This document shows, one piece after another, positions 33,130-63,078 of a DNA stretch of 64,000 bases. The notes below the pieces were generated by a model. The model worked only from the letters and a program-made list of their open reading frames with translations, was not told where the DNA came from and did no database searches. Position 1 is the first letter of the stretch. Every line of letters begins with the position of its first letter. The DNA lies in NCBI RefSeq assembly GCF_013122565.1, contig NZ_CP053258.1; one strand, written 5' to 3'. The stretch comes from Escherichia coli (GTDB lineage Bacteria > Pseudomonadota > Gammaproteobacteria > Enterobacterales > Enterobacteriaceae). Position numbers and translations under genes: made by a program.

Positions 33130-33225
33130 TGCCGGGGGCGCTGCGCTTGCCCGGCCTACATTAGAGCGTAACTGCAATGAATCGTGCCCATTTGTAGGCT
33201 GATAAGCGTAGCGCCATCAGGCATT
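33130..33225. repeat. REP (BIME) element
   Basis: gcccggcctaca ... tgtaggctgataagcgtagcgccatcaggc, classic REP consensus. Confidence 0.7.
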
Positions 33226-53509: not shown

Positions 53510-53620
53510 GTTACACCGTCAGACGTGCTACGCCTGTCAGGCCTATTCGACTCATGCAATGTATTGAATTTGCATAGTTTTGTGGGGCGAATAAGGCGTT
53601 CACGCCGCATCCGGCGTGAA
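53510..53620. repeat. REP/BIME element between cho and nadE
   Basis: cgcctgtcaggcc ... ggcgttcacgccgcatccggcg, REP-like palindromic units. Confidence 0.6.
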
Positions 53621-59797: not shown

Positions 59798-60559
<762 letters not shown>

Positions 60560-60574
60560 GTGAGGATGTTTGCC

Positions 60575-60790
60575 AGATGCGGCGTGAACCTTGCATCCGG
60601 CGATTAATTCCTACAAAGGCGGCGTAACTGCGCCGCTTGAGACTGCTGACAAACGCAAAACTGCCTGATGCGCTTCGCTTATCAGGCCTACGCGTTTCCT
60701 GCAATATATTGAATTTGCACAGTTTTGTAGGCCGGATAAGGCGTTCACGTCGCATCCGGCATAAACAAAGCGCACTATGTAAATCATTTG
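60575..60790. repeat. BIME: cluster of REP units between chbG and katE
   Basis: gcctgatgcgcttcgcttatcaggcctac and tgtaggccggataaggcgttcacgtcgcatccggc. Confidence 0.7.
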
Positions 60791-60812
60791 AGGCGGCGCA
60801 ACTGCGCCGCCT
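60785..60812 (-). terminator. GC hairpin immediately downstream of katE stop
   Basis: Minus strand ggcggcgc-agtt-gcgccgcc then tcaaatgattt. Confidence 0.45.
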
Positions 60813-60816
60813 TCCA

Positions 60817-63078
60817 TCAGGCAGGAATTTTGTCAATCTTAGGAATGCGTGACCACACGCGGTGTGCTGCCATCAGCGTTAGCAGTTCATCCATAAAACT
60901 ACCGTCAGCGCTGTCAGCTTCCACAATCCCTTCTTCACCCTGGTCAGCGACCTCGATTGTTGCTTTAAACTTGCGCGCGTCTCCCGCAAGCGCAATCGGT
61001 TTAAGGTGTTTGTAGGCTTCCATCAGGTAGTAGTTGGCATCGCCGTTGTCAGCGATATCCGCGATATTGCCGCAAGGGACAATGACCGCATCGACCGTCA
61101 GCGAAGGTGCACCGGCAAAGGTAGCGGCTATAGGCAACACCGTACCGTCATCCGCAGTCACTTCACCCATTCGGGAGTAGAGCAGTTTGGCATGAACGCC
61201 TTTGGCCTTCAGCGCCTTGAGAATGGCCAGAAGGTCTGCCGATCTCACCTCATCATTAAGCAAAATCGCTACCACGCGACCTTTCACATCACCGTCAGGA
61301 ATGGCGTACAAACTTAAGGATGGATCCTTTTTCAGACCGTTGACGTCCGGAGGCGGGGTGATATTCAGCTGGTCGTCCGTCAGCTCGATACCGAGATTTT
61401 TCGCCACCGCCTGGGCCAGAGTGAGATCAATATGCGCCAGCTGGTCAACAACGCGCTCACGAATATACGGACGAACGACTTTGCTTAACTCAAAACTGAA
61501 ACCATCGACAATATGGCGCTGCTCGAATGGCGTCTGACTTAGCCAGAACAGACGCGGATGGGAATAATATTCGCCAAACGATGGACTGCGCTCGCGAACT
61601 TTATTTCCTTCCACGCGTTCCTGATATGATTCAAAACCGCCGCGTTTCGGCCCCGGCGGTGTTTCGCGCGGCCAGTTATCGTTGATCGAGTTCGGTTCGT
61701 AATTCGCCGGGTTAGTGTCGATCCCCATACGATGCATGCCGTCACGCTGGAAGTTGTGGTAAGGGCAGGTCGGGCGGTTAATCGGAATTTCATGGAAATT
61801 CGGCCCACCAAGACGACTGATTTGTGTATCGGTATAGGAGAACAAACGTCCCTGCAACAGCGGATCGTTGGTGAAGTCCAGTCCCGGCACGATATGCCCA
61901 GGATGGAAAGCTGCCTGTTCGTTTTCAGCAAAGAAGTTATCCGGGTTGCGATTGAGCACCATTTTGCCGACACGCTGAACGGGCACCAGTTCTTCCGGGA
62001 TAAGTTTGGTTGGATCAAGAAGGTCGAAGTCGAACTTGAATTCGTCTTCTTCAGGAATCAACTGGAAGCCCAGTTCGTATTCCGGAAAATCGCCTGCTTC
62101 AATGGCTTCCCACAACTCGCGGCGGTGGAAGTCCGGGTCACGTCCGGTGAGTTTTTGTGCTTCATCCCAAACGAGTGAGGCTTTACCTGCCAGTGGTTTC
62201 CAGTGGAAACGTACGAACGTTGCCTTCCCTTCGGCATTAATCAGGCGGAAGGTGTGAATACCGAAGCCTTCCATGGTGCGGTAACTGCGCGGGATCCCGC
62301 GATCCGACATCGCCCACATCACGTTGTGCAGAGTTTCAGGTTGCAGAGAAACGTAATCCCAGAAAGTATCGTGGGCGCTTTGCCCTTGTGGGATTGCCCA
62401 GTGTGGTTCTGGTTTTACCGCATGGACAAAATCAGGGAATTTATGCGCATCCTGAATAAAGAAGATCGGCGTGTTGTTACCAACAAGGTCAAAAATACCC
62501 TCTTCGGTATAGAACTTGGTGGCAAAACCACGGATATCTCGCACCGTGTCAGCAGAGCCTGCACCACCCTGAACGGTTGAAAAACGGACAAACACTGGAG
62601 TGATTTTATTCGGATCAGACAGGAAATCTGCTTTGGTGATATCGCTTAAGCTTTTATACGGCTGGAAATAACCATGAGCCGCAGATCCTCGCGCATGAAC
62701 AATACGCTCAGGGATACGTTCATGGTCAAAGTGAGTGATTTTCTCGCGCAGAATAAAATCTTCCAGCAGCGTTGGACCACGGTTACCGGCGCGCAGGGAG
62801 TTTTGATCATCGGCGATGCGCACACCCTGATTAGTGGTCAGCGCATAATTTTCACTGCCTTTGCGTACGTCTTCCAGAGAATTAAGTTTTTCGTTACGCG
62901 TATCAGGGGCTTTCAGACTCCCTGGGGCGGTAGGTTGTGCACCTGGCGGTGTTGGTTCAGCCGCTGGACGATGAGATCCGTCCTCAGGTGCCAGTGAGTC
63001 CATCCCCGGTTTCGCTTCGCTGGAATCGTGTAGTGGTGACTGGTGCTGATGTGGGTTCTTTTCGTTATGTTGCGACAT
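60817..63078 (-). CDS. katE: Catalase HPII
   Basis: 753 aa [19 protein letters not shown]..., large-subunit catalase. Confidence 0.95.

Follow-up and report, generated by a model that had tools for sequence, protein, structure and literature searches.

To our knowledge, how REP and BIME elements spread has never been shown, and E. coli K-12 holds some 70–80 units of the type named BIME-1. A BIME-1 is defined as a z1 REP, an L linker with an IHF site and a y REP in a single copy, and the E. coli REP-associated Y1 transposase (TnpA-REP) cleaves BIMEs in vitro (Ton-Hoang 2012); gyrase binding is ascribed in the literature to BIME-2 and atypical BIMEs. Closely related to this description are the REPINs (RAYT/TnpA-REP), in which two inverted REPs and their spacer form one repeated, presumably mobile unit, and the MITEs, which are small and non-coding, are flanked by direct repeats of their target and occur as empty and filled sites. 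Published work on the IS200/IS605-type Y1 enzymes, relatives of the REP-associated transposase, describes no larger target duplications. In this study, we describe a BIME-1 unit of E. coli that is enclosed by two copies of a GC-rich hairpin between the genes chbG and katE and propose, with a probability of about 0.8, that the unit inserted at a pre-existing GC hairpin and duplicated it, next to a solitary degenerate REP. The arrangement differs from that of REPINs and IS200/IS605 elements, for which no target duplication has been described, in that a whole hairpin of 16–26 nt is repeated, and from that of MITEs, whose duplications are short and fixed by the transposase, in that the length of the repeat follows the palindromic target stem-loop.

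The window, as we call the whole 64,000-nucleotide stretch of an E. coli genome that was analysed, contains chbG, the last gene of the chb operon (59,810–60,559, plus strand, TAA stop at 60,557–60,559), and katE, which encodes catalase HPII (60,817–63,078, minus strand, TGA stop at 60,817–60,819); the coordinates of both come from the list of open reading frames and RefSeq annotation, in the case of chbG that of matching genomes. The two genes converge on a spacer of 257 bp, and ChbG homologues belong to the Pfam family YdjC. K-12 MG1655 has an identical architecture with 4 base differences over an alignment of 301 bp. Both strands of the spacer give strongly structured RNA (z = -5.3 and -6.5), and the locus is absent from the listings in the RepRanger supplement. 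Elsewhere in the window, three more REP-like sequences, one of Z type, one of Y type and one a weak match, lie isolated and unclustered at 33,194–33,222, 53,582–53,615 and 1,495–1,527, and the small RNA sroD is found at 245–330 with an Rfam match of 115 bits, well over the gathering score.

Seeded local alignment against the consensus sequences printed in Durrant 2024 (PMC11208160) resolved three REPs in the spacer, where the first-pass annotation of this DNA had claimed at least two. REP1 (60,572–60,601, plus strand) is a solitary, degenerate Y type that agrees with the published Y consensus at 29 of 35 positions; REP2 (60,663–60,691, plus strand) is a short Z (z1) type, agreeing with the published short Z at 29 of 30 positions as against 29 of 37 for the long Z; and REP3 (60,727–60,760, minus strand) is a Y type inverted relative to REP2, with agreement at 33 of 35 positions and a partial match to naRNA4. 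With such agreement these are real REPs, as had been supposed: imperfect palindromes in the 30–40-nt class that match the Y, Z1 or Z2 consensus, highly repeated and extragenic, lying here between two stop codons. REP2 and REP3 carry the GTAG/CTAC foot, the former ending in ...AGGCCTAC and the latter starting with GTAGGCCGG. REP1 does so only loosely, its CTAC tail (60,611–60,614) being set apart by an 8-nt stretch, GATTAATT (60,602–60,609), so that CTAC comes 9 nt beyond its last base. On the katE strand REP1 folds with -18.2 kcal/mol. It starts 12 nt past the chbG stop, a distance that falls within the range of up to 15 nt from a stop codon at which REPs are reported, according to the account of Liang 2015 given in PMC12306157, to lower translation of the upstream gene.

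REP2 and REP3 are joined by a 35-nt L linker (60,692–60,726), which is detected as the Rfam family ES036 (60,684–60,726; 52.8 bits against a gathering score of 37.6). The linker holds an IHF-consensus-like site, ATTCAATATATTG (60,702–60,714, minus strand), that agrees with WATCAANNNNTTR at 12 of 13 positions, where 0.12 matches were expected in shuffled sequence. With one y and one z1 REP inverted around an IHF-site linker as a single, non-tandem unit, REP2–linker–REP3 classifies on its sequence as a canonical BIME-1 (RIP/RIB), and no long-Z REP and no tandem array, the features of a BIME-2, were found in the spacer. Of the two binding partners that had been suggested for this region, gyrase or IHF, we would accordingly expect the latter, for which the 12-of-13 site makes occupancy plausible; gyrase would go with the BIME-2 features that are missing here.

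The repeated element is larger than the two REPs and their linker. A 106-nt core occurs in at least 40 places per genome in 5,425 of 5,426 complete E. coli genomes, and the motifs that flank it are repeated as well, the left one in a median of 8 and the right one in a median of 6 places per genome. Because the repetition extends to the DNA between the REPs and the hairpins, we define the complete BIME-1 unit as the 154 bp from 60,638 to 60,791 (plus strand; TGAGACTG...TTTGA), comprising a flank motif, Z1, the L linker, an inverted Y and a second flank motif; at least 83 metagenomic BIME-1 copies have the same length of 154 bp. This is an already known, ordinary element of E. coli, present also in K-12. 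It shares with other BIME-1 elements the inverted y and z1 REPs around an IHF-site linker, a single copy per locus, a length of about 140–154 bp, an extragenic position at gene 3′ ends and a presence or absence that varies between strains. It differs from them in nothing within the unit itself; what published accounts outside the original BIME papers do not describe is the sharp ends, each abutted by a duplicated local hairpin.

REP2 additionally contains ATCAGGCCTAC, the natural target of IS621 (Durrant 2024, PMC11208160), and would offer that element a landing site. At the same locus of strain STEC316, a frameshifted IS110-family element (1,314–2,491 of that contig) lies inside REP2, with a target equivalent to window positions 60,681–60,691; it is inserted directly after ...ATCAGGCCT, and its left end reads TGTATTATCCCTCCAGTGCAGAG... 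No Rfam family covers the IS110-type element itself. To the right of the element, the linker departs from its usual sequence (ACCAATAAACTGCAATACATTGAATTTATACGAC) and may have recombined with another BIME-1.

The 154-bp unit is bounded to the base by the two hairpins. Hairpin 1 (GGCGGCGTAACTGCGCCGCT, 60,618–60,637) and hairpin 2 (GGCGGCGCAACTGCGCCGCC, 60,792–60,811), which we read as the left and right copies of a 20-bp target duplication, stand in direct orientation 174 bp apart, a spacing equal to the 154 bp of the unit plus 20. When the alignment is anchored on the unit ends, the copies agree at 18 of 20 positions without a gap, which rules out an indel as the difference between them; the two mismatches are C-to-T changes that weaken the stem of hairpin 1. 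The predicted folds are -15.4 kcal/mol for hairpin 1 and -20.9 kcal/mol for hairpin 2 on the plus strand, and -12.5 and -19.8 kcal/mol on the minus strand. Hairpin 2 has a stem of 9 bp, which in its extended form ends 4 nt from the katE stop. The pattern GGCGGCGYAAYTGCGCCGC occurs at only these two sites in the 64 kb, where 0.15 matches were expected. The first-pass annotation had rightly picked out the two near-identical hairpins, setting hairpin 1 at about 60,624, a few bases to the right of where it lies. It had them flank the REP cluster as part of a typical BIME, which describes REP2–linker–REP3 well enough but not REP1, which lies outside, between chbG and hairpin 1, nor the hairpins, which are not parts of a BIME and are unique to this locus; and it missed both the target duplication that they form and the polymorphism of the locus.

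Three spacer alleles bear on the history of the insertion. The long allele described above is present in about 40% of E. coli genomes, and about 60% have a spacer of 46 bp with an unrelated hairpin, TAAGGTCACTCCCC...GGGGAGTGACCTTA. The 46-bp allele is also found in E. fergusonii and in two divergent Escherichia lineages, whose ChbG homologues are 85–90% identical and which are probably cryptic clades. We considered whether the 46-bp allele might be the empty site and ruled this out, as its hairpin (TAAGGTCAC...) is unrelated; the empty type is instead the form with a single GC hairpin. In one Escherichia lineage the hairpin of the 46-bp allele has undergone a compensatory change (4,260–4,305 of contig L052; TAAAGTCAC...GTGACTTTA versus TAAGGTCAC...GTGACCTTA), which suggests that this stem is under selection.

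The single-hairpin allele occurs in at least 7 genome records and has a spacer of 83 bp, with REP1 and one hairpin. What it lacks relative to the long allele is exactly the BIME-1 unit and one hairpin copy (174 bp), and its one hairpin is an exact chimera: the left part, with T at position 8 and the AACT loop, is that of hairpin 1, and the right part, with CCTCCC, is that of K-12 hairpin 2. Between the flanks of this allele and those of K-12 there are differences at 1 of 1,400 and 1 of 711 nucleotides. The best reading of the allele is that recombination between the hairpin copies recently removed the unit with precision, an event that the direct repeats would permit; that the allele represents the ancestral state before insertion is less likely, given the K-12-like flanks and the exact chimera.

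Comparison with related genera points to the origin of the hairpin. In Salmonella, Citrobacter koseri and C. amalonaticus this position is occupied by one hairpin, whose GCGGCGC/GCGCCGC stem is that of the E. coli GC hairpin; after it, on the chbG strand, comes a T-run that extends into the stop codon of katE. Enterobacter and Klebsiella have unrelated hairpins at the equivalent position. That the GC hairpin descends from a terminator of the chb operon and was then duplicated by the BIME-1 is moderately supported: the link consists of a 7-bp GC stem in common and of position, a match whose chance of arising by accident we estimate ourselves at about 1 in 100, both hairpins being GC-only, and most Escherichia lineages carry the 46-bp allele with its different hairpin rather than the GC-hairpin allele. 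The stretch TAATTCCT before hairpin 1 (60,602–60,617) is the same as the Salmonella chbG stop and its flank, at an equal distance from the hairpin, and may be an old chbG stop plus flank; the overlapping CCTACAAA may equally be the tail of a Y REP, REP1, displaced by GATTAATT.

In E. albertii an intact hairpin, the orthologue of hairpin 1, directly follows chbG, and the unit after it breaks off within the linker, where it is joined to GCCGCCTT, which is the 3′ half of the second hairpin copy; the locus has neither REP1 nor katE. Absence of katE from this position was seen in E. albertii (8,790–9,060 of contig L008 and 3,760–4,010 of L060), C. koseri (1,960–2,135 of L058) and a Klebsiella sp. 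(1,360–1,525 of L062). In each, chbG is followed by cedA, and C. koseri retains about 50 nt of the katE 3′ end.

Within E. coli the genes on either side form a mosaic relative to the spacer allele, with recombination breakpoints that seem to cluster at the spacer. The 3′ half of katE in the window (60,827–62,226) differs at 1 of 1,400 nucleotides from the short-allele strain VE-T9 and at 25 of 1,400 from the long-allele strain K-12, and STEC316 has the long-allele spacer next to a chbG that most resembles the gene of a short-allele strain. The last two codons and the stop of katE differ synonymously between the alleles (CCT GCC TGA in the long allele, 60,817–60,825; CCG GCG TAA in the short allele, 1,707–1,715 of contig L003), so that the allele boundary lies inside the end of the gene, and the long-allele end of katE, CTGCCTGATG, is identical to the start of REP2 as an inverted repeat. 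A further variant, in strain Z1323CEC0003, has a 40-bp tandem duplication (426–505 of contig L054; window 60,585–60,624) between the GCGGCGT of REP1 and that of hairpin 1, which repeats the 3′ half of REP1 plus TTAATTCCTACAAA.

The same footprint is found around BIME-1 units elsewhere. Between yqjG and yqjF, the same unit has on each side a copy of another hairpin, AACGAGGAG...CTCCTCGTT. We reduced the units on metagenome contigs, from a pattern-limited scan rather than a full census, to 14 distinct loci among the matches listed, all with the canonical 154-bp unit, and scored direct repeats in the 40 nt outside each unit end against 182 mismatched left/right control pairs. Among these matches, 9 of the 14 loci have a direct repeat at both ends, with scores of 10.5–23.5, all above the highest control score of 8.5. 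The repeats at these nine of the listed loci are locus-specific stem-loops of 16–26 nt situated 0–6 nt from the unit, often with an A-run before the left copy and a T-run after the right copy. The hairpin is one-sided or absent at the other 5 of the 14 listed loci, so the duplication either is not universal or decays. One-sided hairpins were seen at the metagenome loci L080, L074/L107, L073 and L067; L080 has its hairpin to the left of the unit and a T-run immediately to the right, which would fit an insertion between the stem and the T-run of a terminator with no duplication.

Single-hairpin, empty alleles are known at three loci, tkt, metE/ysgA and chbG/katE. At tkt the empty allele has one hairpin, reading AAAAAAAGGGCCGCTTTCGCGGCCCTTCTCAC, and in the filled allele the unit lies between two identical 20-bp copies of AGGGCCGCTTTCGCGGCCCT, a gain of 174 bp. 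At metE/ysgA the empty, single-hairpin form occurs in about 4,200 genomes, K-12 being among those checked, and the filled form on the metagenomic contig L085. These BIME-1 units present both parts of the MITE-type signature, a flanking direct repeat and single-copy empty sites.

In the range 1,816,100–1,816,399 of the K-12 genome (NC_000913.3), which covers the spacer, the only curated RNA 3′ end in three growth conditions (Adams 2021, supplementary file 1) is at 1,816,378 (LB, OD 2.0). It was measured in K-12, not in the strain of the window, and corresponds through the K-12 alignment to 60,567 on the minus strand, which places it 5 nt beyond the foot of REP1 and leaves 8 nt to the chbG stop; the katE-strand RNA ends in ...GCCGCAUCUGGCAAACA. 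No 3′ end was called at hairpin 2 or hairpin 1 in these read-thresholded K-12 data from three conditions, in two of which katE was weakly expressed, so that a minor end at hairpin 2 could lie below the threshold, and none on the chbG strand of the spacer, the chb operon being uninduced in those experiments. The katE 3′ UTR of K-12 appears to span the whole spacer and to end at REP1.

No U-run follows either hairpin on either strand, so neither copy is a canonical terminator, and a terminator scan of 60,300–61,100 returned 0 sites. On the katE strand hairpin 2 has the GC stem-loop of an intrinsic terminator but the tail UCAAAUGAUUU in place of a U-tract. With the T-run of the outgroup hairpins on the chbG strand, hairpin 2 is probably not the katE terminator for which the first-pass annotation took it, and mapped 3′ ends tell against that assignment in K-12; the idea that the structure stabilises upstream mRNA fits the published end, with REP1 as the element involved. 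Ends just past stable stem-loops that no U residues follow have been described for mRNAs terminated by Rho and trimmed by exonuclease, REPs being known protectors (Dar and Sorek 2018). The katE-strand end, 5 nt after REP1 and free of U residues, resembles these, with the difference that the katE transcript must first pass four other stem-loops. By analogy, katE transcripts would continue across hairpin 2, then the BIME-1, then hairpin 1, and the steady-state end 5 nt past REP1 would arise most simply from Rho-type termination downstream followed by 3′-to-5′ trimming back to the protective stem-loop.

Several other explanations of the paired hairpins have to be weighed against duplication by the BIME-1. 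They might be functional terminators of a typical BIME cluster, hairpin 2 serving katE and hairpin 1 serving chbG, and be alike because terminator-type stem-loops are alike. Like intrinsic terminators, they are stable GC-rich stem-loops (-12.5 to -20.9 kcal/mol) next to genes, each copy being the nearer one to one gene, with hairpin 2 ending only 4 nt past the katE stop; their Salmonella and Citrobacter counterpart is canonical, complete with its T-run; and REP and BIME elements do occur at the 3′ ends of transcription units. Identity at 18 of 20 positions that includes the loop, however, cannot arise by convergence, and the E. coli copies differ from intrinsic terminators in having neither a U-run nor a mapped 3′ end, the single Term-seq end being at REP1, while the scan found no site and the outgroup T-run belongs to the chbG strand rather than to that of katE. 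The very closeness of hairpin 2 to katE counts against it, as a hairpin 4 nt from a stop codon lies under the terminating ribosome. We consider this explanation improbable.

Still less probable is that the hairpins were doubled locally, or by unequal crossing-over, independently of the BIME-1, with the unit lying between the copies by chance or having inserted between hairpins already in tandem. Slippage-type events do take place here, as the 40-bp tandem duplication of Z1323CEC0003 illustrates, but here, as at 8 other loci whose hairpins are different, the edges of the repeats match the ends of the 154-bp unit to the base; empty sites hold one hairpin, not two, and adjacent double hairpins without a unit were not seen. 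Least of all do we credit the view that the GC hairpins belong to a dispersed repeat family, as a further REP type or as outer motifs of the BIME-1. They are palindromic, GC-rich and extragenic as REPs are, and hairpin 1 has GCGGCGT in common with the Y REP head. Yet alignment to the Y and Z consensus sequences gives them scores of at most 6, too low to be meaningful, they carry no GTAG/CTAC tag, and the hairpins that flank other BIME-1 units are different ones. The 43-nt stretch around hairpin 1 is present in 2,171 of 5,426 genomes, one time in each, with no second copy at an E-value of up to 10 in that set. When 100,044 species, each represented by one genome, were scanned for the exact pattern, 43 matches came up, nearly all in unrelated GC-rich organisms, and the sole enterobacterial one was the same locus in E. 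albertii. Judged by these comparisons of sequence, the hairpins are neither REPs nor a dispersed repeat family nor parts of the BIME.

We therefore return to insertion with duplication. A 154-bp unit, mobile now or once, would have inserted at a 20-bp GC-rich palindromic hairpin between chbG and katE, itself the probable descendant of the intrinsic chb-operon terminator that persists in Salmonella and Citrobacter, and the insertion would have duplicated the whole hairpin, leaving one copy on each side. If the insertion duplicated the hairpin, the two near-identical hairpins constitute a target-site duplication of the size of a structure. The unit would have brought with it a putative IHF site in its linker.

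The duplication pattern as such has good support from the loci compared above, and we know of no transposition mechanism that duplicates a whole hairpin. As a tentative generalization, which we hold to be rather less likely than otherwise, BIME-1 might be a MITE-like element of 154 bp with palindromic hairpins of the terminator type as its insertion sites, the duplication being a whole stem-loop of 16–26 bp and not a fixed stagger. To the flanking repeats and empty sites can be added loosely inverted consensus ends, TGAGACTGATGAC and TCAGATTGTTGAC, which agree at 10 of 13 positions when matched by eye. A duplication set by structure would imply symmetric breaks at both feet of a palindrome that is extruded or single-stranded, for which the REP-associated Y1 transposase or a host structure-specific nuclease are candidate cutters. 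TnpA-REP is a candidate for the enzyme that mobilises BIME-1 by association only.

In the REP and BIME literature outside the original BIME, RIP and RIB papers we found no mention of a hairpin-sized target duplication by BIME-1, which may thus be unreported, the BIME papers of the 1990s aside. For annotation, hairpin 2 should not be entered as the katE terminator, and the BIME-1 insertion seems to have split the chb-operon terminator and put it out of action. The duplication of the hairpin explains the precise BIME-1 excision seen in strain comparisons and, together with clean empty and filled alleles, provides mobilisation assays with a concrete target, palindromes of the terminator type, and a concrete product. 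If true, the MITE-like reading would explain both the presence of BIME-1 at the 3′ ends of transcription units and its precise loss.
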